Below, in pieces: positions 40,198-56,300 of a stretch of DNA of 64,000 nucleotides (positions are counted from its first letter, which is position 1; each line of letters starts with the position of its first letter). The stretch covers positions 7,648,001-7,712,000 of the forward strand of contig OZ244207.1 of assembly GCA_965216875.1 (NCBI GenBank), given 5' to 3'. The translations under genes and the position numbers were made by a program. The notes below the pieces were generated by a model. The model saw only the letters and a program-made list of their open reading frames with translations. It had not been told where the DNA came from and did no database searches. This DNA is from Rubripirellula sp. (GTDB taxonomy: Bacteria; Planctomycetota; Planctomycetia; Pirellulales; Pirellulaceae).

Positions 40198-41871
40198 CTA
40201 TTCAGGTGCAACCGTCAACCAAAGTTGATCGAGCATCACCAGCGGTCGCAGTGTGAAGGTCGCCGTTTGCTCTGCGTCACGTTGGCTACCATCCTCTTCG
40301 AGCGGCACGGCAACGACTTGAAACGGTTGGTTGACCGCGATCGATTCCTTGGCCTCAAATTTCAATTTGACGGACTTGGCACTTTCACCTTTGGTCTCAG
40401 AAACCACCGCATCGACTTTAATCCCGTCGGGAAGTCCTCGGGCTTCGATTCGCAGCTTCTTTGCAAATCCATCGAAGCGGAGAATCGTGACGGTGACCTC
40501 GGCCGATTTCCCCGCCACCACTTTGAAGTGGTCGGCTGCGACCGTTGCCCCGAAGCTCGGTGCGGGTTCCTCGACGAGGACCGAGTACGCGACTCGTGGA
40601 CCATGGCCGTCAAGTTTGTCAGCGACAAGTATTTCGACGTCGGTGGCTTCCTTGGCAGTAAAGGCCAGGGAGGCATCGTATTTGTCGCGTGACTGATCAA
40701 TCGATCTGGCGAGATCTCTGGTCGAGACGTCGTCATTGCTGGCCAGGACTTTTCCAGAGGCATCGACGAGCTTCAAGCTGGAGTCGAATGGAAATCCGAA
40801 TCCGCGGGCAAAGACCGTCGCGCGTACTCGCTGACCCTTCTGAACCGAGAATGCCAGTCGGTCCGTTTCGCCGCGCGAACTGATATGGCCTGAAAAGACG
40901 ATCGGCGTTTCCAGTTGCGCGGGATCAGAGGGCTCGTCGTCAAATGCGAATTGGGCGTTCGCGATCGACTTGCACCATTGCCAACCAGGAAGGGACGCGG
41001 CAGTCAGGGTGGTGGGCGAGAATTCGGAAACGGAGTGATACCCCGACTTCGTCTTCTGTTCGGTTCCGGGGGCCAAATTCCAGCAGCTCAATCGCGGCGT
41101 TGGCTGCGGCTGGGAAGCGACGATCAATGGCAAAGCATGATCAAGCAAAGCATCGGTCGTCAGTTGCAGTGAGTAAAGGTACGACGCGGATCCCGAAAAC
41201 CCAATCGTGCTGTTGGGCGTTTCGGGGAATGCGAATAATCGAACGATCACGTCGGTGTCCGTTTCGGAACGGTAGACAATTTGGGGATCGAGTCCGATCT
41301 CGTCATCGGATTGCGTGAGCACGTTGCCACGCAGGTCACAGACCTGCATCACCGTATCCATTGGTGATTTGAAGACGCGATTGGCCGTGACGGATGCGAC
41401 GAGAGATTTCCCTGCGTTGATGTGAACTCGGAACGAATCGACTTCACCCGACCGATGAAGCTTGCCACAAATGACTGACGGCATCTCAACGACATTTGCG
41501 TCGTCGATCTTGTTGTTCGGTTCACTTTCTTGTTGGACGTCGAGATTGGAGACCACGATGGGCACAAGTGCTGACGCAGACTTGTCGTCGTGCAGGCGAA
41601 CCCAAGCCGTTCCCGACGCAGTGTTGGGCAAAACGCTGACCGAGAGCTTTCCCGATTCTTTCTGCGGTTCAACGGACACGCCAGGATGATCAACGACAAC
41701 CTTGGGCGGCCAATTGGGAAACTTGCCTTCGGCTGTCACGGTTGATTCGCTGGCTGCCTTGACGACCGGTGGGAAGAGCCGGTCGAACGTGACTTGAGCG
41801 TCCACGGTTGTGATGCCGCTGAAGATGATCAGAAAGGTGGCGCTGCAGAGACGGACTGAGAATCGTTTCAC
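40198..41871 (-). CDS. Secreted PPC (pre-peptidase C-terminal)-domain protein, partner of DUF1501/DUF1553
   Basis: ESEPNN, GEVDSF, SPMD, DPQI, GETDRLAF repeats; no catalytic protease motif seen. Confidence 0.82.
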   Translation of the reverse strand: MKRFSVRLCSATFLIIFSGITTVDAQVTFDRLFPPVVKAASESTVTAEGKFPNWPPKVVVDHPGVSVEPQKESGKLSVSVLPNTASGTAWVRLHDDKSASALVPIVVSNLDVQQESEPNNKIDDANVVEMPSVICGKLHRSGEVDSFRVHINAGKSLVASVTANRVFKSPMDTVMQVCDLRGNVLTQSDDEIGLDPQIVYRSETDTDVIVRLFAFPETPNSTIGFSGSASYLYSLQLTTDALLDHALPLIVASQPQPTPRLSCWNLAPGTEQKTKSGYHSVSEFSPTTLTAASLPGWQWCKSIANAQFAFDDEPSDPAQLETPIVFSGHISSRGETDRLAFSVQKGQRVRATVFARGFGFPFDSSLKLVDASGKVLASNDDVSTRDLARSIDQSRDKYDASLAFTAKEATDVEILVADKLDGHGPRVAYSVLVEEPAPSFGATVAADHFKVVAGKSAEVTVTILRFDGFAKKLRIEARGLPDGIKVDAVVSETKGESAKSVKLKFEAKESIAVNQPFQVVAVPLEEDGSQRDAEQTATFTLRPLVMLDQLWLTVAPE

Positions 41872-41877
41872 CAGTGG

Positions 41878-43212
41878 TTAGCCCATCAACTCGGAAATTG
41901 GCGTCGCGTCGCTGACCAAGTGAGTCGGCCTGCCTTCGGGGGTGTAAACGATCTTGCTGGGATCGATACCAAGTTTTCGATAGATCGTTGCAACAAAGTT
42001 CTCGGGGGAAAGAACACGTTCGACCGCGGCGTAGCCTTGGCGATCGGTTGCACCGATCACTTGGCCACCGCGAGTGTTGCCGCCAGCAAACATCACCGAC
42101 ATCGCGTTGGACCAATGGTCGCGGCCACCACGGTCATTGATCTTTGGAGTGCGTCCGAATTCGCCGAGCACGACGACCAGAGTACGCTCAAGCATTCCCT
42201 TCGCTTTCAAGTCCTCGATCAACGCGGCAACCGTTGCATCGACCGGTGGCATCTTCTTGTCAAACGACTTGAAGATGTCAGTGTGGTGGTCCCAGCCGCC
42301 ATGATAGAGCGTCACAAAGGGAACGCCGGCGCTGACCAAACGCCGGGCGAGCAACGCGCGTTGGCCGAATGGATGGCGTCCATACGCCGTTCGGATTTCG
42401 CCCGGTTCGCGGCTGATGTCAAACGCTTGCTGCGCCGTCGGGCTACTGATCAGTTGAAGTCCCTGCGCAAAAAAGTCGTCCGCAGCGACTGCCGGATCGC
42501 CCGCGGCGGCGTCGGTGATGCGCAGCATTTTGTCAATCTTGCTGCGGATCTTCTGTCGATCTTCAAACCGTGCATCCGTCAGTCCCGATGGGATGGTCAC
42601 GTCGCGAACTTGGAAGCTTGATCGGTTGGGATCATCGGGAACCACGAACGGGGCGTGGCGGGCGCCCAAAAAGTTGGGGCCGCCGCTGCGTGACATGCTC
42701 GGCATTGAAAAGTAGGCGGGAATGCCTTCCGGGGCACCCACTTCACTTGAGACAACGCTGCCGAGGCTGGGGTGGAAACTGACAAAGGCGCCACACCCGA
42801 CGGGGATCCGCGGCGGCGCACCGGTCATCATGTAATGGTTGCCGGCGCCGTGGTTGCCTTGGTCGTGGCGAATCGATCGAACGATCGCAAGTTCATCCGA
42901 GATGGCAGCGAGCCGTTTCATCGGCTGCGAAAAGTGAATGCCGGGTGTTTGCGTTGCGATCGCCGAAAACTCGCCGCGGATTTCAGCGGGTGCTTCCGGT
43001 TTGGGATCGAAGGTTTCGTAGTGGCTTGGTCCGCCATCGAGCCAAACCAGGATGCACGCATCGGCTTGCTTTTTGACGCTGCCAGTGGCCGACGTTGTCG
43101 CCGCCGAGGCTCGCAGTGCGCCCGACAATCCGCCTGAGACCAATCCGCCGAGACCGAGACGGAGTCCGTCACGTCGACTGATGCCTTCACAATTGAGTCG
43201 TTTTCTTCCCAC
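41878..43212 (-). CDS. DUF1501 family protein
   Basis: CEGISRRDGL, DGGPSHYETFDPKP, GWDHH, GEFGRTP, GRDHW. Start set at GTG 43212 to avoid overlap with the upstream gene. Confidence 0.92.
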   Translation of the reverse strand: MGRKRLNCEGISRRDGLRLGLGGLVSGGLSGALRASAATTSATGSVKKQADACILVWLDGGPSHYETFDPKPEAPAEIRGEFSAIATQTPGIHFSQPMKRLAAISDELAIVRSIRHDQGNHGAGNHYMMTGAPPRIPVGCGAFVSFHPSLGSVVSSEVGAPEGIPAYFSMPSMSRSGGPNFLGARHAPFVVPDDPNRSSFQVRDVTIPSGLTDARFEDRQKIRSKIDKMLRITDAAAGDPAVAADDFFAQGLQLISSPTAQQAFDISREPGEIRTAYGRHPFGQRALLARRLVSAGVPFVTLYHGGWDHHTDIFKSFDKKMPPVDATVAALIEDLKAKGMLERTLVVVLGEFGRTPKINDRGGRDHWSNAMSVMFAGGNTRGGQVIGATDRQGYAAVERVLSPENFVATIYRKLGIDPSKIVYTPEGRPTHLVSDATPISELMG

Positions 43213-43220
43213 AGGACCGC

Positions 43221-45455
43221 CTAGTTCTGGATGGAGAATTCGGGTGAATTGATCATTGCCCACATTAAGTCTTCGATCGCAACTCGGCGCTGGTCCACCG
43301 GTTCGATCAGGGCCGTTGCATATTCAAGTTCGACGTCGCTGGGACGCCGAGAAAAGACCAACAAGTAAACCTGTTCGACGATTTCGTTCGGCGGCATTTC
43401 GCTCGATGCAAGCTTTGCCGCCTTTCCTTTGTCACTTCGCAAGCGACGATCAAGCTCACTTGAATTCATCAAGTGCAACGCTTGTGTCACTGTCGAGTCG
43501 GGTGTCCGCTCACACGGCGGGTCTTGGTTTTCATTTGGACGCCCGAAGGTGTCGAGGAAAAGAGAATCAACTCGATGTGTCCAGACTTGATTCGCTCGTG
43601 ATTCAGGCGGCATCCCTTGAAGGGAGACGTTGGTCTCGGTCACATCCGCGATGGCATCCATCAACACTTCGGCTCGCAACCGATGGCGATAATGCCGCGA
43701 GTAGTTGATCCGATCGGAAACGTTCGAGGGAGTCGTTTCGCTACTGTGCGAGTAGACCCGCGAGAGCGTGATCGTTTTGAGCAGATGCTTTAGGTCGTAG
43801 TCGGATTCTTGGAACTCGCGTGCAAGTTCGGCCAAGAGTTTCGGGTTGCTGGGAGGGTTGGTGCTCCGCAAGTCATCGACCGGTTCCACGATTCCGCGAC
43901 CCATCAACGTCGCCCAAAGACGATTGACCTGAACCATCGCAAAGTATTCGTTGTCAGGTGACACCATCCACTCGGCAAGTCCCTGGCGCGGGTCGTTCGA
44001 CAGGTCTGTGGCATCACCAAAAAGTGGTCGCGGCGGCAGGACGGCGCCCGTGATGGGGTGCCTTACGTCGCCCTTTTCCGACGTGTAGATGCGTTCTTCG
44101 CCGCCCGAAATCGGCGGCGATAGTCCAGTTCCCTTCCGGCCCACTTTGGCAAAGAAAGCTGCAAAGGAGTAGAAGTCGTCTTGGCTCCATCGTTCAAAGG
44201 GATGATGGTGACACTTTGCACAATCAAGCCGAATGCCTAGGAACAGTTGGCTGACCATGGTGGCGACTTCATCAGGGCTGCGACGGTCTCGATAAAGAGT
44301 TGCGGCACCTGTTGTCCACGTACTTCCTTTGGCCGTGACAAGTTGGCGGACGAATTCGTCGTAGGGTACGTTTCGACGAAACTGATCACGGATCCAATTG
44401 TCGTAATTCAGGACGGCCTTGATACCGACGCGGTAGGGATTTGGACGCAAAAGATCGGCCCAATAGCCTGCCCAATGATCGGCGTATTCAGGGCGGTTGA
44501 GCAGCTCGTCAACGAGCAGTTCCTTCTTGTTCGGGTCGCTGCTGTCGATAAATGATGCTGCCTCCGAAGGTGTTGGCAGTCGACCGATCAAGTCAAGGTA
44601 GACCCGCCGCATGAAGACCGCGTCGGAGACGACGGGCGATGGAGCAATATCGAGCTTTTGAAGTTTGGCGTAGACCAAGTCATCGATAAAAGAATGTCGC
44701 GGCAGGTTTTCGAAGAGTTTGTCGGGAAGCGACTCGGGTTGCGGGATGACGACTTCGGCGACACAAATCTGATTCATGTACCGTGCCATCACAGCGGTTT
44801 CGCCACTGAGTTTGCCTGCAGTCAATTGCCCCGCGGCGTCAACGGCGACCACCGATTGGTCGTTCGAAAGGTAGGTGGTGAGCTTGGTGACATCTCGGAC
44901 ACTGCCGTCGCTGTAGTGCGCTGAAACTTGCAACGGCTGTGATTGGCCTGAGTTGAGCGAAAACTCGCTGCGTTCAAGCACGACCCGATCGAGTGTGGGT
45001 TCATCAGGAATCCGACGCGGTGCCCCCTGCTCGATCCACGACAACAGCACCTGATACGGCCCACTGTTGATTTCGATTTTCCGACCGCCGCCGTGCGGGT
45101 CTTGGGCCGTTGCTTTGCGAAGCAACAAGCTCTCTTCGGGAGAAGCAAAAAAGAGACGCCGGCCACGCGCGTCACCAATCACCGCGCGATGGTCAAAGTC
45201 AGAATCAAACGCGAGCAGGGAAAGTTGAAAGCCGTTTTGGCCACGCTGCTTGCCATGGCAGGGGCCCGAGTTGCAGCCGTGAGCGGTCAGGATGGGTTGG
45301 ACATCTAGCTCGAAGCTGATCGGGGCGTCATTGGAAGCGGGAGGCCCGGAGGGGGAAGCGGCATCGGTCGCCCGACTCGGCAAAACGCCAAGGACGCAAA
45401 GAAGCAACGGAAGGTAGGCGGGAAGGTTCCAGCGGGCGCAGTGCATCGCGAGCAA
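43221..45455 (-). CDS. DUF1549/DUF1553 protein with N-terminal CX4CH cytochrome-like and Ig-like domains
   Basis: SFELDVQPIL..GCNSGPCHG, SLLLRKAT..HGGG, RRVYLDLIGRLP, CAKCHHHP, RLRAEVL. Confidence 0.92.
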   Translation of the reverse strand: MLAMHCARWNLPAYLPLLLCVLGVLPSRATDAASPSGPPASNDAPISFELDVQPILTAHGCNSGPCHGKQRGQNGFQLSLLAFDSDFDHRAVIGDARGRRLFFASPEESLLLRKATAQDPHGGGRKIEINSGPYQVLLSWIEQGAPRRIPDEPTLDRVVLERSEFSLNSGQSQPLQVSAHYSDGSVRDVTKLTTYLSNDQSVVAVDAAGQLTAGKLSGETAVMARYMNQICVAEVVIPQPESLPDKLFENLPRHSFIDDLVYAKLQKLDIAPSPVVSDAVFMRRVYLDLIGRLPTPSEAASFIDSSDPNKKELLVDELLNRPEYADHWAGYWADLLRPNPYRVGIKAVLNYDNWIRDQFRRNVPYDEFVRQLVTAKGSTWTTGAATLYRDRRSPDEVATMVSQLFLGIRLDCAKCHHHPFERWSQDDFYSFAAFFAKVGRKGTGLSPPISGGEERIYTSEKGDVRHPITGAVLPPRPLFGDATDLSNDPRQGLAEWMVSPDNEYFAMVQVNRLWATLMGRGIVEPVDDLRSTNPPSNPKLLAELAREFQESDYDLKHLLKTITLSRVYSHSSETTPSNVSDRINYSRHYRHRLRAEVLMDAIADVTETNVSLQGMPPESRANQVWTHRVDSLFLDTFGRPNENQDPPCERTPDSTVTQALHLMNSSELDRRLRSDKGKAAKLASSEMPPNEIVEQVYLLVFSRRPSDVELEYATALIEPVDQRRVAIEDLMWAMINSPEFSIQN

Positions 45456-45606: not shown

Positions 45607-46311
45607 TTATTGGCCCGAGATCGCGTTTCGCTGCAGCTCGGTCAGTTCTCGAATGCCCTTTTTGGCAAGCTTCAAGAGTCCAGCCAGTTCGTCGTCATCA
45701 AACGTGGCTTCTTCGCCGGTCCCTTGGATTTCAACGAATCGACCGCCGCCGGTCATGATGACGTTCATGTCAACGTCCGCGGCAACATCCAGTTCGTAAT
45801 CAAGGTCGAGCTTGAGTTCGCCTTTGATGAGGCCAACGCTGATTGCGGCGACCGAGTCACTGAGTGGTCCGTCGCCCACGGTTGATCCTGGGACGGCGGC
45901 AGCGACCGCATCGGCCAGCGCGATGAATCCGCCAGTGATCGCGGCCGTGCGCGTTCCGCCGTCGGCTTGAAGCACATCGCAGTCGACCGTGATCATGTGT
46001 TCGCCCAACGCTTCCAGGTCGATCGTTGCACGCAGGCTACGACCGATCAAACGTTGGATCTCGGTCGTGCGACCATCGATCTTGCCACCGCGATCGCGCC
46101 GCTTTCGCGGGCTCGTGCTGCCGGGAAGCATGTTGTATTCCGCTGTGACCCAGCCTTTGCCTTTTCCTTCAAGCCATGGCGGCACTTTGGCTTCGAGCGA
46201 AGCGGTGCAGAGGACCATCGTGTTTCCACAACGGTACAACACACTGTGCGGGTTAGAGCTTAAGAAACCACGCTTGATTTCGACGTCACGAAGTTGGTCC
46301 GAGGCACGCAT
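45607..46311 (-). CDS. rph: Ribonuclease PH
   Basis: GWVTAEYNMLP, GRTTEIQRLIGRSLR, DCDVLQADGGTRTA, EIQGTGE. Confidence 0.97.
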   Translation of the reverse strand: MRASDQLRDVEIKRGFLSSNPHSVLYRCGNTMVLCTASLEAKVPPWLEGKGKGWVTAEYNMLPGSTSPRKRRDRGGKIDGRTTEIQRLIGRSLRATIDLEALGEHMITVDCDVLQADGGTRTAAITGGFIALADAVAAAVPGSTVGDGPLSDSVAAISVGLIKGELKLDLDYELDVAADVDMNVIMTGGGRFVEIQGTGEEATFDDDELAGLLKLAKKGIRELTELQRNAISGQ

Positions 46312-46361
46312 GCAATCGCTTTGACTTGTTGGAAAAGAGTCCTGGCACGTTTTCGCTGAAC

Positions 46362-47303
46362 TTAACTGGCGGCGACGTTTTCGTCGATCCACGATGGATT
46401 CAGCATCCAAACGAGCAGCCCCTTTTGGGCGTGCATGCGGTTGCCAGCTTGCGAGATGATGTCGCTTTGGTCACTGTCGATCACTTCATCGGTGATCTCT
46501 TCACCACGAACGGCGGGCAGACAATGCAGCACGCGCGCGGTCGAAGGAGCGGCGTCCATCAATGCTTGGTTGACTTGATAATCGGCGAACGCCTTTTTGC
46601 GCTCGGCCATTTCCGATTCCTGCCCCATGCTGGTCCAGACGTCGGTATAGATCGCATCGGCGTCGGCGACAGCAGCAGTGGCATCGCTGGTTTGCGCGAT
46701 TGCCGCACTGGGATAGTGCTGCTTCACACGTGCGATCCAATCGGCATCCATTTCGTAGCCATCGGGACAAGCGAGCGTGAAACGCATTTCGAGCATCGCG
46801 CAGATCAAGGCTAGTGAATGCGCGACGTTGTTTCCGTCGCCGACGAAAACCAAATGCCTGCCTTCAATGCTTCCAAACGCTTCTTGAATGGTCAGGACAT
46901 CGGCCATCGCTTGGCAAGGATGGCAAAGATCCGTTAGTCCATTGATGACGGGCAACGCATCGAAGGAGGCAAGTTGTTCGACGCGTGAGTGCGCTTTTGC
47001 GCGGCAAACGACGCCATCAACGAACTCGCCCAGCACGTTGGTGAAGTCAGAAGGTGATTCGCGTTTTCCCCAGCCGACATCTTCGCCCAAGAAAAGGCTC
47101 GAACCGCCCAGTTGCGCCATCCCCGTTTCGAAACTCACTCGCGTTCGCAGGCTCGGCTTTTCGAACAGCAACGCCAGTACTTGACGCTCAAGCACTGGCG
47201 GACGGTCGCCGTTGGCCAAACGTTGTTTCAAATGCGCAGCGGTCGCCAAGATGCTTCGCAGGTCGTCAGGTGTGATATCGAACAATGTCAACAGATGTTG
47301 CAT
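46362..47303 (-). CDS. argF: Ornithine carbamoyltransferase
   Basis: [33 protein letters not shown]. Confidence 0.96.
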
Positions 47304-47452: not shown

Positions 47453-49210
47453 CTATCGGCTCAACTGTGCGGCGAGCCGTTCGATGTATTCCATTGCCTC
47501 GCCAAGTGCCTGCAAGACGGCATCGCGATCATCATCCGTGACCCGCGCGGGGATCTGCATTTGCAAACCGGTCTCGCCCGCCGCTTCGATTCGCAAGGCC
47601 CGCTTCGCTGCGGTGGCGACGAGTTCGACTGACGAGATGTCGGTTTCAATCCCAATGATGCTGCCGAGCACATGGACGTCGCGAACGAACTGAAATCCTC
47701 CGACCAATTCCGCTAACGCGACGGCAAAGTCTTGCATGTCTTCTTGTGCTGCGCTTGGCAGGTTCGCCTCGATCATTTCTTCGATCGTTGCCAGGGCGAT
47801 AGACGTTTGCAAAGGATGCGTCGCCGTGTCAACAACGTGGCCGCCGGCGAAGCGATCCTTGGCCAGTACGATGCCGCCCGCTGTGCCGCCGAAAAGGCCG
47901 GCCGACAAAACGACTGCGTCGACATCGATATCGCAGATCGACGCAAACGATAACGGGTGACCCGAGAGTCCAAGCCCAAGTCGTGTTTCGTCAATGATCA
48001 AGGCGGCGTTGTGCTTGTTACAAAGCTCTCGTGCCGCGCTCAGGAATTCAGGTTCGACCCGTCGGCAGGAGTCCTGGAAATCGACCGGCGAAAACATCAC
48101 CGCGGCGGTTTGGTCATCGATGCTCGCTTTAAGTGCATCGATGTCGCCGGCGGGGATATGGATGAATCCCGCCATCATCGGGCCATAGTCTTCCTGCAAT
48201 TCCGGTCTTCCGCTGGCAGTGCGGCCGACACCGGTTCGGCCGTGATCGCTTCCCACAAACGTGATCGTGCGATAGGCCGATTTGTGATTGCATGCCCGTG
48301 CGAAGTAGATTGCCGCTTCGATCGCGGCATCGGCCGAGTCGGTCACAACGATCGATTCGGCCTGAAAGGATCCCCGTCCGGCGAGCATGCGATTGATTGC
48401 GGCGAGCAGATCGCTGGGCCCGTCCACTTGGCGTTTGCCCAAGCCGGCCGAATCACCGAGGTAGTTTTGAGCGACTTGTGTGATCGCATCGGACACTGCG
48501 GGCGAAGAGAACCCAAGAGCCGAGACACGCCCGGCGAGTGCGTCGATGATTTCGTATCGGTCATCGCTGGGGCGTCGAATGCCAACGGGAGGACCGGCCA
48601 TCGGTTTCAAGACCGGTTCGATCTCGGCCAACTCTTCGAGGATGTCCGCCTCCGGCTGGATGACTTCTTCGGTGGCGTCGGAATCGGGCTTCGAAGATTG
48701 GTCGAGAGTTGCGACCTCGGGTAGCGGTTCGTCTTCGGAGTGGCTCTCGGATTGTTCGGCGGTGCTTGCTTCGTCATCCGTGCCGAGTTCACTCTCTTCG
48801 CTTTCGGCGCTGGGTGCTTCATCGAGTTCGTCGTCGAGCTCCTCGTCCTCGTCGAACTCTTCGTCGTCCTCTTCGTCGAATTCCTCGTCATCCGCTTCTG
48901 AGTCGAGGTCGACTGCTTCGTCGAGGTCGTCTACGTGCTCTTCTGTCTCGTCGTGCTCTTCCGTCTCGTCTTCGGCGAGTACTTCGTCTACTTCGTCGTC
49001 GACTTCTTCTTCGTACTCGTCGCTCTCGTCTTGTTCCTCTTCGTCTTCATCCCAGTCGTCCTCTTCTTCGTCGTCTGACTGGCCAACAACGTCTGCATCT
49101 TCTTCAGCGAGTTCTTCTTCGTACTCTTCGTCGTCTTCCCACTCTTGTTCTTCAACAGAGTCGTCGGATTCGTCTTCGAGTTCGTCGATGGGTTCTTCGT
49201 GATCGGTCAT
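47453..49210 (-). CDS. Degenerate class III aminotransferase (ArgD-like) with long acidic N-terminal extension; catalytic Lys absent
   Basis: HGRT, TAAV, LIIDE recognisable; AKGLGGG is replaced by SAGLFGG; lies between argB and argF. Confidence 0.85.
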   Translation of the reverse strand: MTDHEEPIDELEDESDDSVEEQEWEDDEEYEEELAEEDADVVGQSDDEEEDDWDEDEEEQDESDEYEEEVDDEVDEVLAEDETEEHDETEEHVDDLDEAVDLDSEADDEEFDEEDDEEFDEDEELDDELDEAPSAESEESELGTDDEASTAEQSESHSEDEPLPEVATLDQSSKPDSDATEEVIQPEADILEELAEIEPVLKPMAGPPVGIRRPSDDRYEIIDALAGRVSALGFSSPAVSDAITQVAQNYLGDSAGLGKRQVDGPSDLLAAINRMLAGRGSFQAESIVVTDSADAAIEAAIYFARACNHKSAYRTITFVGSDHGRTGVGRTASGRPELQEDYGPMMAGFIHIPAGDIDALKASIDDQTAAVMFSPVDFQDSCRRVEPEFLSAARELCNKHNAALIIDETRLGLGLSGHPLSFASICDIDVDAVVLSAGLFGGTAGGIVLAKDRFAGGHVVDTATHPLQTSIALATIEEMIEANLPSAAQEDMQDFAVALAELVGGFQFVRDVHVLGSIIGIETDISSVELVATAAKRALRIEAAGETGLQMQIPARVTDDDRDAVLQALGEAMEYIERLAAQLSR

Positions 49211-49291: not shown

Positions 49292-50200
49292 TCAGCTATG
49301 GATTTCAGTGCCAACACCTTGGGTCGTGAAGACTTCGAGCAATAGTGAATGTCGCAATCGGCCATCGATGATGTGGATTTTGCGAACACCTCGGCCGAGC
49401 GTTTCGAGACAGGCTTCGACTTTGGGGATCATTCCTGAAGCGATGACGCCTTCTTCGATCAATTGTCTCGCTTCCTTCGAATCGAGCGAATGAATGATCG
49501 TCGAAGCATCCTCTTTGTCGCGGCGGACACCATTGACGTCGGAGAGGAAGACCAGCTTCTCTGCACCGAGGGCCTGGGCCACTGCCATTGCTGCTGTGTC
49601 GGCATTGACGTTGTAGAGCTGGCCGGCTTCGTCTTGGCACATCGAGGGGATCACGGGAACCTGGTCGGTATAGGTCAGCCCCTCGATCACTTGCCGTTCC
49701 ACTCGGGTCACGTGGCCAACGAAACCGAGATCATCTTCGGTCGGTAGCTTCTCGCCGTACAGCACGCCGGTGGTGTGGAAGGAGAGGTTCATCGCGCGAC
49801 CTCCAAGCCGCTCGATTTCTTCGGTAAGAAATTCGTTCAGCTCTCCTGCCAAGACGCGATTGACGACATCGAGGGTCTTGTCGTCCGTCACTCGGCGACC
49901 ACGAATGAAATTGGGCTCGATGCCAGCCTGTTCCATGGCTCGGCTAATCGCTTTGCCACCGCCGTGAACAATGACCGGTTTCATGCCGACCGATTCCATG
50001 AAGATGACATCAAGCAGGATGTGCATCAGCGCTTCCTCGTCATCCAGGACGCTGCCGCCAAGCTTGATCACGGTCGTCGTCCCCCTGAATCGCCGAATCC
50101 AACCCATCGCTTCAATCAAGGTATTGGCTTTGGCGATCGCTTCATCCACGCTCAGGTCTCCTAAGGCGCTGGCAAGCCCGGCCACGTCGGTCAATTGCAT
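49292..50200 (-). CDS. argB: Acetylglutamate kinase
   Basis: [41 protein letters not shown]. Start uncertain. Confidence 0.96.
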
Positions 50201-50424
50201 ACTTGATCTGGTCCGGGTGCGAGAACTTATTTTGGGGTGCAAACGCCGCAAAAACGCCGATTGGCAGCCCGCTTTTCGGGAACGGAAAAACCGATCAATT
50301 TAGAGAGGCCCGCTGATAGGGTCAATTGAAGTCACGATTTCCTGGCGATTCAGTCATCAATCGGACTTCAGCTAAGATGAATATTTGGTGAATTGAGACT
50401 TCGGAACACTGGGAAACGCCTCGG

Positions 50425-51228
50425 ATGAGCGACAGAAAACTGGCTGTGATTGGTGGTGGTCAAATGGGCCGAGCGTTGGTCGGCGGCATGTTGGCCAAGC
50501 AAGTTGTCGCTCAAGAGTGCGTCCAAATCGTCGATCCCGACCCAAATTGCCATCAGTGGTGGGGGCAGCAGTATCCCAAAATCACCGCATCCGACGACTT
50601 TTCCGGTGCGGTCGCCGCTTCCGACACCGTGCTGCTGGCAGTCAAGCCGAACATTTTGCCCCAGGTTTGCAGTCAGCCTTCCCAAACATGGTCGGGCAAA
50701 TTGATCCTTTCGATCGCAGCTGGCGTCAGTCTCGAATCACTTTGCGGATGGATCGGACACGAGCGTGTCGTTCGCGTGATGCCCAACACGCCCTCGCTGG
50801 TTGGTGAGGGGGCAAGTGCTTTTTGCGTTGCCGGCGACGTCGATGCCGCAGACCAAGATGCCATCGAAGCGATGCTCTCGAGCGTCGGCATCGCGCTCAA
50901 GGTCGACGAGAAACAAATGGATGCCGTCACGGGGTTAAGCGGAAGCGGTCCGGCCTACGTTTGCATGGTCATTGAAGCTCTGGCCGATGGTGGCGTCCTC
51001 GCGGGATTGCCGCGACCGATCGCCATGCAACTCGCAACCCAAACGGTTTTGGGTACGGCAAAGATGGTTGCCGAGACGGGCCAACATCCCGGTCAACTCA
51101 AGGATGCCGTTGCTTCGCCCGGAGGAACAACCATTGCCGCAATTAGCGAACTGGAACAAAATGGTTTGCGAGGAGCACTGATCCGAGCGGTCGCCGCGTC
51201 GGCAAACCGAAGCAAAGAACTCGGTTAG
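50425..51228 (+). CDS. proC: Pyrroline-5-carboxylate reductase
   Basis: IGGGQMG, LAVKP, RVMPNTP, GSGPAY, SPGGTT. Confidence 0.97.
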   Translation: MSDRKLAVIGGGQMGRALVGGMLAKQVVAQECVQIVDPDPNCHQWWGQQYPKITASDDFSGAVAASDTVLLAVKPNILPQVCSQPSQTWSGKLILSIAAGVSLESLCGWIGHERVVRVMPNTPSLVGEGASAFCVAGDVDAADQDAIEAMLSSVGIALKVDEKQMDAVTGLSGSGPAYVCMVIEALADGGVLAGLPRPIAMQLATQTVLGTAKMVAETGQHPGQLKDAVASPGGTTIAAISELEQNGLRGALIRAVAASANRSKELG

Positions 51229-51800: not shown

Positions 51801-52002
51801 CACTTTTGATTCAACTTGTGGGTTTGGTTTATTTTCACAGGTTTGATTCAGCATCCATGGGCTGAACACCCGAACATTGAGTTATGGCTGTGGGGGGCCA
51901 CTGCACGTTTGCGCGCCTACGTGCTAGGCCACTGCAAAGTTCTCTCCACTGCTATGACGTGAATTGACAACCATCCATCCGGTCACAGGGCGAGGGATTG
52001 CC

Positions 52003-52773
52003 ATGAGCATTCGGATCTTTTCTCAGGTTGTGTGCCGAGCAGCATGTTATGCCGCTCTTACGGCAACGACTTTCTTCTTTGCCTCAAACGCGGAAGCGCA
52101 GACTCAACCGGGATACGTTACCGATCCCAACACAGGCATTGTTTACCGACAATCGATGCGGACTGTCGAGCGGCCTGTGGTCGAAACGCAGGTGGAAACT
52201 CGTCAACAGACGGTTTACCGCCCCAAGACAGTGACCGAGAATCGTCCCGAAACGCGGACGTACTACACCCCTGTGGTCGAATACCAGTGGACTCCAAAAG
52301 TCCATGGACGTTGGAATCCCTTTCGCAAACCGACCGTGGCCTACCACCATGTTCCAGTGACCAGTTGGGAACGGCGCGATGATGTGGTCAATCGCACGAC
52401 CACGCGAACCCAGTGGGTCGCCGAAAACCGAACAGTCGAAGTGCCACGCCGCGTTGTTCGGATGGAACATGTTCCCCAAGTCGATCTGGAACCGGTTGGC
52501 AATGTTGCGCCCAACAGTCCTTCTTCGGCAATCGCGTCACGCATGCGCCCACTCAGCTCAAGCGAGCAAGTCGTCCCGTTGACTCAGGGGCCAACGACGC
52601 AAATCGCAAGCACCGTTGGCCGGTTGAGCAGTGATCCGCCGCGTCGTTCGGCCAGCCAGTCGGGAATGCGGTCGACCGACCTCGCGCCAAATCCGCCGGT
52701 TTATTCGCAACCGCTGCCACCAGCATCAAGCGGCATTGGCGTCGCGATGCCATCACTACCGTTCCTGCGGTAG
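52003..52773 (+). CDS. Secreted hypothetical protein, Thr/Val/Pro/Arg-rich
   Basis: Signal peptide ending AEA-Q, extended-strand-like repeats, GRWNPF motif. Confidence 0.78.
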   Translation: MSIRIFSQVVCRAACYAALTATTFFFASNAEAQTQPGYVTDPNTGIVYRQSMRTVERPVVETQVETRQQTVYRPKTVTENRPETRTYYTPVVEYQWTPKVHGRWNPFRKPTVAYHHVPVTSWERRDDVVNRTTTRTQWVAENRTVEVPRRVVRMEHVPQVDLEPVGNVAPNSPSSAIASRMRPLSSSEQVVPLTQGPTTQIASTVGRLSSDPPRRSASQSGMRSTDLAPNPPVYSQPLPPASSGIGVAMPSLPFLR

Positions 52774-54374: not shown

Positions 54375-56300
54375 TCAGTCGATGTACAGGAATTCGCTTG
54401 TGTTGAGCAGCGCGCGGCAGAGGTCGACCAATGCTGCATCGTGCGGCGCGGAGTGTCCTTCGCTATGAAGTAAGGTCGATTGGCTCGCCAGAAAACGCTG
54501 CCAGTGATCAAGTTCGCTCGCGGACGCATCGCGACTGTAGAGACGCCGACAAAGCTCGACACAACGTTGGCTATTGGTCGCGTGGTCGCGTGAGACCGAT
54601 GCGGCGAGACGCTCTGCGGCATCCATCGTCAGCTCGGAGTTGAACAGAAGAAGCGATTGGACGGCTGTCGTCGACGGTTGTCGTGCCGCACAGCTACTGT
54701 TGGCCGCCGGGCGATCAAAGGTTGCGAAAAAGGGATAACGCAAGTTGCGACGAGCGAACAGGTAGATGCTGCGGCGATAGTGATCGGGAACATGAGGCGT
54801 TGTTTTCCATTGTCCCCGCTTGAGTGTTTGCAACATCTCGGTCGGAAGAGGCGGCTGGATTCCGACACCGCCACCTGATCGGTTAAGCGAATGGCCGACC
54901 GCTAACATTGCATCTCGCAGTGCTTCGGCCTCGAGCCGTCGACGCGGGAAACGTGCAAGCAGTTTGTTCTCGGGGTCAACCTCTTCGATGTTTCGCCAAA
55001 CCGGCAAGGCTGCTTCATCAGGGGCGCTGGCGGTGGTGAAAACCGAGGACAGAACAATCTCGCGATGTAAACGTTTCAGACTCCAGCCACCATGTATCAA
55101 CTGCCCAGCCAAGTAATCAAGCAGCTCAGGATGTGTTGGTTCATTCCCCATGACGCCAAAGTCGCTGGGGGTCGTCGAGAGACCTTTGCCAAAGTGATGT
55201 TGCCACACTCGATTGACGATGCTGCGCGCGGTGAGCGGGTTTCGCTCGGAAGTCAGCCAATTCGCCAAATCGCTTCGTCGGAGCGTGTCGGTATGGTTTG
55301 GCGAGTCTTCGAGGTCGGCAATGCGAGGGTATGCCGCGACGAGTTGCTGTCCCTTGCGGCGCCAATCACCACGAATCATCAAATGACTCACATGATTGGC
55401 GTCGGCATTGGCCTTAAGCGTGGAAACCGATCGGTCTCGCTTGACGGCGATGGCATCGTCAAAGAAAGCGCGCAGCCGATAAAAGTCGGCTTGGCTGATG
55501 GCGTCGTACATGTGGTCATGGCATTGCGCACAACCCATTTGCAAACTGAAAAAGACTGAACCAACCGTGGAAGTGATTTCGTTTAGCAGCACGTGCTCGC
55601 GTTCGTCTTGCGAGTTGATATCAGGCATGTCGGGGCCGGACAAACAAAACGCGGTCGCAGTGATTCCCTCGGCTCTTCGCTCGCTTGGTGCTAACAAGTC
55701 GCCCGCGATTTGCCACTCGACAAATTGGTCGTAGCGGAGGTCCTCGTTAAAGGCTTGGATGACCCAGTCGCGATATTTCCATGCCTCCGGCCGCACCTTG
55801 TCATGTTCGTAACCGTCGGTGTCGGCGTATCGCGCGAGGTCGAGCCAATATTGTCCCCAGCGTCGACCGTATTCGGGTGAGGCCAATACGCGGTCAACAA
55901 GCCGTCGATAGGCTTCCGGCCGCTCGTCACTCACGAACGCGTCAAGTTGTTCGGGCGTTGGCGGCAGGCCCGTCAGGTCAAAGGAGAGCCGGCGAATCAG
56001 CGTTGCGCGATCCGCGCGTTTGACAGGCTTGATGCCCTTTCGCACAAGCGGTGAAAGGATGAACGCATCGATCGGCGTTTCAATCCATGCTCGAGCAAAC
56101 TCGCGTTCGGACGAACGCTCCTTGCCAACCATCGGGATCGAAACGGGTTCGATCGGCAGGAAGGACCAGTGGTCGCGATCAAACTCATCGATCGGTGTTT
56201 CGATGTAGCCTGAATCCTCAGCGTCATCGGCGAGGGCTTGTGAGGAAAGCGTGCTGATGGCCGCGATCAATAGGAGCAAGAGATTTCGCGACGTCTTCAT
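54375..56300 (-). CDS. DUF1549/DUF1553 protein
   Basis: HWSF, RRLSFDLTGLPP, WLDLARYADT, CAQCHDH, RLEAEALRD. Confidence 0.93.
   Translation of the reverse strand: MKTSRNLLLLLIAAISTLSSQALADDAEDSGYIETPIDEFDRDHWSFLPIEPVSIPMVGKERSSEREFARAWIETPIDAFILSPLVRKGIKPVKRADRATLIRRLSFDLTGLPPTPEQLDAFVSDERPEAYRRLVDRVLASPEYGRRWGQYWLDLARYADTDGYEHDKVRPEAWKYRDWVIQAFNEDLRYDQFVEWQIAGDLLAPSERRAEGITATAFCLSGPDMPDINSQDEREHVLLNEITSTVGSVFFSLQMGCAQCHDHMYDAISQADFYRLRAFFDDAIAVKRDRSVSTLKANADANHVSHLMIRGDWRRKGQQLVAAYPRIADLEDSPNHTDTLRRSDLANWLTSERNPLTARSIVNRVWQHHFGKGLSTTPSDFGVMGNEPTHPELLDYLAGQLIHGGWSLKRLHREIVLSSVFTTASAPDEAALPVWRNIEEVDPENKLLARFPRRRLEAEALRDAMLAVGHSLNRSGGGVGIQPPLPTEMLQTLKRGQWKTTPHVPDHYRRSIYLFARRNLRYPFFATFDRPAANSSCAARQPSTTAVQSLLLFNSELTMDAAERLAASVSRDHATNSQRCVELCRRLYSRDASASELDHWQRFLASQSTLLHSEGHSAPHDAALVDLCRALLNTSEFLYID

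Follow-up and report, generated by a model that had tools for sequence, protein, structure and literature searches.

A branch of the family Pirellulaceae carries, between argB and argF, a conserved, misannotated gene whose product has the fold of the acetylornithine aminotransferase ArgD (AcOAT) and has lost its catalytic site. In our reading, to which we give a probability of roughly 0.58, this pseudo-ArgD is a PLP-free pseudoenzyme with a non-catalytic binding role in arginine metabolism, for example a regulatory one. The catalytic job of ArgD in this branch has probably passed to a different enzyme. The gene is a clade-wide bacterial pseudoenzyme in a core amino-acid operon, with active, dead and deleted states found within one family.

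An intact gene in the argD slot

The gene was studied in a Rubripirellula sp. genome (G000), in a window that comprises the whole 64,000-nucleotide stretch analysed. As the first-pass annotation had stated, the open reading frame is intact and occupies the argD position: it runs from 49210 to 47453 on the minus strand, encodes 585 residues, and has argB on one side and argF on the other (Table 1). Among named families it scores best against TIGR00707 (argD), but its 135 bits fall below the curated threshold of 410; residues 220–572 match PF00202 (117.6 bits), which places the protein in the class III aminotransferase fold. One contig in each of two public runs from a single sample, possibly the source, is identical to the assembly over 4001 of 4001 bases. 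An assembly error is an unlikely cause of the Lys-less frame, because the contigs of the two runs agree letter for letter over this length. A promoter and terminator scan of the locus gave signal at chance level.

Table 1. Features of the arginine cluster and of the pseudo-argD gene (positions in the window).
Feature	Position	Strand	Basis
pseudo-argD ORF, 585 aa (acidic tail and Lys-less class III aminotransferase fold)	47453..49210	-	ORF, NCBIfam, Pfam
N-terminal acidic tail, 200 codons, 111 D+E, 1 K, 0 R	48611..49210	-	Composition
AcOAT-like core, 385 aa	47453..48610	-	AF2 mean pLDDT 90.5; nearest solved folds are AcOATs
GCC codon, Ala437 (core 237), at the Schiff-base Lys position	47900..47902	-	Alignment
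Ala293-Asp294 (core 93-94), replacing Gly-Thr/Ala of the PLP phosphate site	48329..48334	-	Alignment
Asp322 (core 122), replacing the PLP ring-stacking Phe	48245..48247	-	Asp in 68/69 clade rows
argB, acetylglutamate kinase; longest ORF, true start probably later	49292..50251	-	TIGR00761, over cut-off
argF, ornithine carbamoyltransferase; its Arg40 tracks the dead gene	46362..47303	-	TIGR00658, over cut-off
rph, RNase PH; follows argF in many relatives	45607..46410	-	
proC, divergent; frequent neighbour in the clade	50425..51228	+	

Loss of the catalytic site

When pseudo-ArgD is aligned to the solved AcOATs of T. maritima and T. thermophilus, the alanine of its SAGLFGG motif (GCC, 47902-47900) falls on the Schiff-base lysine of AKGLGGG, in agreement with the substitution first proposed for this codon (47900-47902). 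The other motif losses proposed at that stage hold as well: EPIQGEGG has become SPVDFQDS, DEVQTG has become DETRLG, FHGRT has become DHGRT, and TFGGNP is lost. In the cofactor site, glycine gives way to Ala-Asp, the threonine motif is gone, the ring-stacking phenylalanine is aspartate and the glutamine is arginine; the pyridine-binding aspartate and the arginine of HGR are retained. Across a 69-row alignment of the clade, the Schiff-base site is Ala in 47 rows, Ser in 12, Gly in 10 and Lys in none.

The first-pass annotation had allowed that another lysine might occupy the PLP site. We found no conserved alternative in the 69 clade rows, where the most Lys-rich column reaches 23/69, position 210 is Lys in only 4/69, and none of the seven core lysines of pseudo-ArgD is conserved. 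By this alignment, another lysine near the predicted PLP site is absent. In a cyanobacterial AcOAT, the substitutions G114A, D239A, K268A and T296A each abolish activity (PMC13412850, cited in part). By motif alignment, pseudo-ArgD has Ala at the sites of G114 and K268, has no T296 motif, and keeps the Asp of D239. Measured against these published mutants, its sequence marks it as unable to transaminate, and it probably does not bind PLP.

Distribution and descent

A profile search of 301 Pirellulaceae genomes gave an argD-type match in 213 and none in 88. Sixty-seven of the 213 matches belong to the 13 genera that carry the Lys-less form, a classification made from locus sequence for 47 and from genus and score for the other 20. 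A canonical-type match is present in 146 genomes, the lysine having been seen directly in 28 canonical loci. Among the best 150 matches in 1.84 billion representatives, the site is Lys in 73 and another residue in 74, and 3 matches do not extend over it. Named members are found in Stieleria marina, Rubripirellula obstinata, Rhodopirellula europaea, R. sallentina and Allorhodopirellula solitaria. Those of R. europaea, R. sallentina, A. solitaria and R. obstinata are labelled as acetylornithine/ornithine aminotransferase, and metabolic models would be misled because dead members are annotated as active enzymes.

The argB–argF slot is occupied by a normal argD in genera g119, g11 and g65, and by slot and descent pseudo-ArgD is placed as an argD ortholog. 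In the ArgD trees, a single branch with support of 100 parts all Lys-less from all Lys-bearing rows, whereas the ArgB+ArgF tree groups g72 with the Lys-bearing g119 and g11. Because the trees disagree on g72, the lysine may have been lost once or twice, and long-branch joining could have affected the ArgD trees. Identity to the query is 35–54% for pseudo-ArgD and about 70–87% for ArgB and ArgF, a sign of much faster evolution that counts against our reading.

A candidate replacement beside astA

No second argD was found in G000. When a normal ArgD was used as query against 66 carrier genomes and 12 in-clade genomes that have lost the gene, no ortholog came up (best E 3e-66, at most 40% identity). 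This search covered 80 of 96 intended genomes, and its two controls scored 1e-280 and 1e-203. The earlier suggestion that pseudo-ArgD is the heterodimer partner of a true ArgD encoded elsewhere fails, since no second argD was found in G000 or in the 78 relatives.

G000 holds four PF00202 genes: BioA, a gene that we take to be HemL-like, an enzyme adjacent to astA, and pseudo-ArgD. The astA-adjacent enzyme (493 aa; G000:C1:6329657-6331135, L003:1465-2946, with astA at L003:361-1410) keeps SGA, FAGRT, EPIAGEGG, DEVQ, the lysine and QTFTG. An intact aminotransferase adjoins astA in all 12 loci checked, and the astA-linked enzyme is present in 191 of the 301 family genomes, at 51–78% identity among the matches listed. 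It occurs in 67/67 genomes of dead-ArgD genera with a match, in 80/88 genomes without an argD match and in 44/146 with a canonical-type match, counts that overstate the association because the genomes are kin rather than independent. argD dies or vanishes almost only where this enzyme, whose activity we infer, exists.

The astA-linked enzyme scores 93 bits against TIGR03246 (AstC), for which the cut-off is 610, and is thus outside that model and remote from E. coli AstC; in the NCBIfam scan it stays under each of the curated cut-offs shown. Its context is nevertheless that of an AstC-type enzyme, with intact motifs, a place beside astA, and astB and an astD-like gene in the same genome, which also has argC, argJ, argG and argH. 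It may therefore work like AstC without being a member of TIGR03246. In E. coli, AstC and ArgD are described as functionally interchangeable, so that a catabolic acyl-ornithine aminotransferase can replace ArgD (PMC3590144, cited in part). Both enzymes are active in E. coli; in the present case the catabolic one is a distant class III protein, and ArgD has either died or been deleted. From this context, we propose that the astA-linked enzyme probably took over the acetylornithine transaminase step; it is likely to be the enzyme that transaminates succinyl- and acetylornithine in these bacteria, and it appears to be uncharacterised. The finding predicts an acyl-ornithine aminotransferase with a dual role that has so far escaped characterisation. 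Against this stands the presence, in some relatives, of other class III enzymes 35–40% identical to ArgD that could do the step.

Some g97 genomes (G201 and G099, at L157 and L158; G161) have an additional class III aminotransferase with 38–39% identity to ArgD, which may be an ornithine or acetylornithine enzyme that was acquired. In G000, astB and the astD-like gene adjoin each other (L144, L145; G000:C1:7625577-7628322) some 20 kb ahead of the window. This pair lies far from astA, and the genes of the arginine succinyltransferase (AST) pathway are thus in separate places. A divergent M20 family peptidase (L053:13340-14497) stands beside the astA-linked aminotransferase and may act in the same pathway as this enzyme, as a desuccinylase or deacetylase.

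Fold and rewired pocket

The AF2 model of the core has a mean pLDDT of 90.5, and its best structural matches are AcOATs (TM 0.79–0.81); segment 127–135, which includes R130, is of low confidence. In the alignment, the core clade has lost 15 positions that are near-invariant in active enzymes and has gained 13 new ones conserved at 91–100%. R28, D94, D122, R130, F240 and Q352 are among the latter, each in 93–100% of the 69 rows. R28, R130, F240 and Q352 we presume to lie in the pocket. D94 and D122 map onto residues listed for the AcOAT pocket (PMC13412850, cited in part). Across the divergent subclades only D122 (8/9 rows) and R130 (9/9) hold; R28, D94, R125 and F240 are not kept in g85 and g94, which counts against our reading.

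A polyacidic tail that comes and goes

The first reading described the N-terminal 200 or so residues as extremely rich in Asp and Glu, and their composition bears this out: 111 of the first 200 (55%) are acidic, with one Lys and no Arg. The best 100-residue window of the tail, with 69 D/E, ranks second among the 29,575 stop-to-stop frames of at least 100 aa in the genome, five of which reach 60 D/E per 100 residues. The tail contains short imperfect tandem repeats of 9–24 bp. A relative in the same genus (G002) has only about 17 extra residues, and the long tail is thus not a constant of the family.

Of 71 homologs, 66 include the core start and 24 of these have an N-terminal extension of at least 100 aa; all 24 extensions are at least 35% Asp/Glu, many of these homologs being close kin. 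A 60-residue window of at least 50% Asp/Glu is found in 16/55 dead copies and 0/28 active ArgDs, and the same scan of the flanking ArgB and ArgF proteins found none. Within the arg cluster, acidic tails have been gained by the dead protein only. In g94 the tail is C-terminal, an architecture matching that of the named Rhodopirellula-type proteins, and the trait changes at least eight times on the ArgB+ArgF tree. Tail dN/dS in six g28 pairs is 0.20–0.40 with many Asp/Glu swaps, a value biased downwards by low-complexity alignment. Because polyacidic tails have arisen repeatedly, and on the dead form alone, this family is a clean test case for their role in bacteria.

Other G000 proteins carry acidic stretches: ScpB (L148:187-1392) has a C-terminal tail with 74 D/E per 100 residues, and FtsK (L152:78-3020) has an acidic linker. 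This genome makes acidic tails readily, given their presence on ScpB and FtsK. A frame of 184 residues (L151:192-743) is mostly acidic and has no Pfam match.

Selection, deletion and the alternatives

Core dN/dS (Nei-Gojobori) is 0.07–0.14 in nine distinct close pairs (eight in g28, one in g15), from which duplicate loci had been dropped; one pair with saturated dS was unusable. The same pairs give 0.04–0.08 for argF and 0.01–0.09 for argB, and the lone close pair of active argD gives 0.04. Pseudo-ArgD is constrained, but more loosely than its argB and argF neighbours, as these pairwise values indicate. Ten deeper pairs involving g72, g85 or g87 reach 0.28–0.59 with dS near saturation, which counts against our reading. 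Frameshifts occur in 2/18 loci of one set, and one of the two also has a frameshifted argB. The protein thus has the marks of a pseudoenzyme: a fold from which the essential catalytic residues are gone, an intact frame and purifying selection. The first-pass annotation had proposed a maintained non-catalytic protein and had set against it the possibility that close relatives keep the lysine, with decay in this strain only. The lysine proved to be lost clade-wide (0/69 rows) and the core to be under purifying selection in close pairs; this supports maintenance and rules out strain-specific decay.

The gene can nonetheless be lost. We searched 34 genomes without an argD match with ArgF, and 26 yielded a locus. 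In 23 of these 26, argB abuts argF and argD is cleanly absent (L116-L127, L129-L132, L134, L136-L141); of the other three, one carries a normal argD with a frameshift, and in two the gene upstream is unrelated. Twelve of the 23 deletions lie inside the Lys-less branch and account for all 12 in-clade genomes without a match, a point against our reading. Because of these clean deletions, the dead protein is dispensable. In genomes without argD between argB and argF, arginine synthesis would be scored as incomplete. In eight of the 34 genomes (G009, G130, G104, G163, G109, G124, G078, G108), ArgF had no match at E 1e-60; these may use another transcarbamylase type or lack the gene.

Such losses are what would be expected of slow decay, in which pseudo-ArgD is a functionless but expressed passenger of the operon, selected only against misfolding, given tails by codon slippage and eventually removed by clean deletion. 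Several independent clean deletions inside the clade, the long branches and relaxed dN/dS of the deep pairs, the tandem repeats in the tail and the similar tails of ScpB and FtsK all agree with it. We nonetheless regard this account as unlikely: recent pairs have dN/dS of 0.07–0.14, frames are intact in 13 genera with frameshifts confined to the two loci above, new near-invariant residues have appeared at pocket positions, and the tails sit on dead copies and on neither active ArgDs nor flanking ArgB and ArgF.

The new pocket could instead serve new chemistry, or PLP-independent binding unrelated to ArgB and ArgF, through Asp94, Asp122, His123, Arg125, Arg130 and Asp207. These polar residues are 93–100% conserved in the 69 core-clade rows, and the gene is lost regardless of an otherwise complete arginine pathway. 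The set varies across subclades g72, g85 and g94, however, the segment bearing R130 is modelled with low confidence, and in the loci read the gene has not left the arg cluster, all of which make this alternative distinctly improbable.

Fold-type I precedents raise a further option, that of an inactive subunit partnering the astA-linked aminotransferase and shifting it towards N-acetylornithine, the two genes occurring together in 67/67 genomes. LCB1 (SPTLC1) of serine palmitoyltransferase is likewise a fold-type I subunit that lacks the PLP lysine and is selectively kept; it heterodimerizes with an active paralog, whereas G000 has no active argD paralog and the gene is often deleted (PMC3794620, cited in part). 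A bacterial case is Ser4 of the SerTA aminotransferase, a truncated fold-type I protein that also lacks the lysine; it lies next to its active partner, to which it contributes a helix (PMC11726168, cited in part). Unlike Ser4, pseudo-ArgD is full length, has no adjacent aminotransferase and has an eroded donor loop. Lys-less fold-type I proteins are thus already known, and both of these work with an active paralog that is missing here (PMC3794620, PMC11726168, both cited in part); G000 has only a distant class III enzyme, and the threonine loop that would be donated is not kept. That loop is the most eroded part of pseudo-ArgD and variable in the clade, the astA-linked enzyme has a threonine motif of its own and is present in 80/88 genomes without an argD match, and the two proteins, which are encoded far from each other, hardly align (E 0.1). 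Such a partnership is very improbable.

It is scarcely credible that the protein is still an acetylornithine aminotransferase using another lysine, for the database names that say so look like automatic family labels and, although Asp207, Arg125 and the fold are retained, no lysine column is conserved (position 210 included) and the phosphate-site and ring-stacking residues are gone as well.

Relation to known proteins

Pseudo-ArgD resembles ArgD/AcOAT (TIGR00707; PDB 1vef, 2pb0, 2ord) in gene slot, tree position, fold (TM about 0.8), pyridine-binding Asp and HGR Arg. It differs in having no Schiff-base Lys, no phosphate-site Gly and Thr, no ring-stacking Phe and no Gln, in the absence of the EGG motif and the N-terminal arm, and in the long acidic tails that it may carry. 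A literature search found no description of a pseudo-ArgD family, as judged on listings and the openings of abstracts; subscription journals and supplements lay outside its scope.

A working model and the ArgF hint

Within our preferred reading of a PLP-free binding protein, we propose the following sequence of events. An argD ortholog turned into a pseudoenzyme, which, by its sequence, is unable to transaminate and probably does not bind PLP. A second, intact class III aminotransferase beside astA would serve both AST catabolism and N-acetylornithine synthesis, and argD would have been freed because this enzyme probably covers the N-acetylornithine step. As its distribution shows, the gene was cleanly deleted in many lineages and kept in 13 genera in a Lys-less, folded form under purifying selection. 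The pocket of the PLP-free dimer, with its new Asp94, Asp122, Arg28 and Arg130 and its retained Arg125 and Asp207 (core numbering), may bind ornithine, arginine or acyl-ornithine. The ligand-bound protein might tune a neighbouring enzyme, with ArgF the likeliest, and thereby curb a futile cycle in which arginine is made and then degraded by AST. ArgR was not found in G000, and a cell that runs synthesis and AST breakdown, probably through one shared transaminase and without ArgR, would need another brake on this cycle. The acidic tail would be an optional, easily expanding accessory rather than part of the core function.

We hold the specific version of this model, in which a PLP-free dimer binds a ligand and tunes its neighbour, most likely ArgF, as tentative. 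A working parallel is the epi-arginase control of yeast ornithine transcarbamylase (OTC), in which a protein that senses arginine and ornithine binds OTC and stops a futile cycle; the yeast binder is an active arginase, whereas here it would be a dead aminotransferase whose binding is hypothetical (PMC4569842, cited in part). Rather more doubtful is the fuller proposal, in which ArgD has become a sensor of ornithine and arginine. By binding ArgF (or ArgB), it would switch the cell between making arginine and breaking it down through AST, as a post-translational stand-in for ArgR, and the polyacidic tails that it has acquired repeatedly, at one end or the other, would tune binding or assembly.

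The sole sequence hint of a partner, and a suggestive one, is Arg40 of ArgF. Of 55 loci with the dead gene, 85% have Arg at this residue, and 11/12 in-clade loci that lost the gene have Asn; within genus g94 it is Arg in 4/4 carriers and Asn in 3/3 genomes that lost the gene. Exceptions are two g81 carriers with Asn, four g72 carriers with Gly, two other carriers with His and one genome with Arg that has lost the gene. The covariation is not significant (4 independent pairs, median p 0.5), the column having been chosen post hoc from about 600. The other roles put forward in the first-pass annotation, a scaffold or regulator for ArgB/ArgF or a polyanion that binds Arg, Orn or polyamines, may still apply, this covariation being the one weak lead. 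Arg183 of ArgB was rejected as a similar candidate, as g94 carriers do not have it (median p 1). A complex prediction for ArgF and the pseudo-ArgD core scored 0.00 and was counted neither for nor against.

Elsewhere in the window, a frame at 51964-52773 on the plus strand encodes 269 residues with a signal-peptide-like start, a repetitive region rich in V, T and R, and no Pfam match. The minus-strand regions 40198-45455 and 54375-56300 hold a 557-aa secreted-looking protein without a Pfam match, together with DUF1549/DUF1553 and DUF1501 genes typical of planctomycetes.
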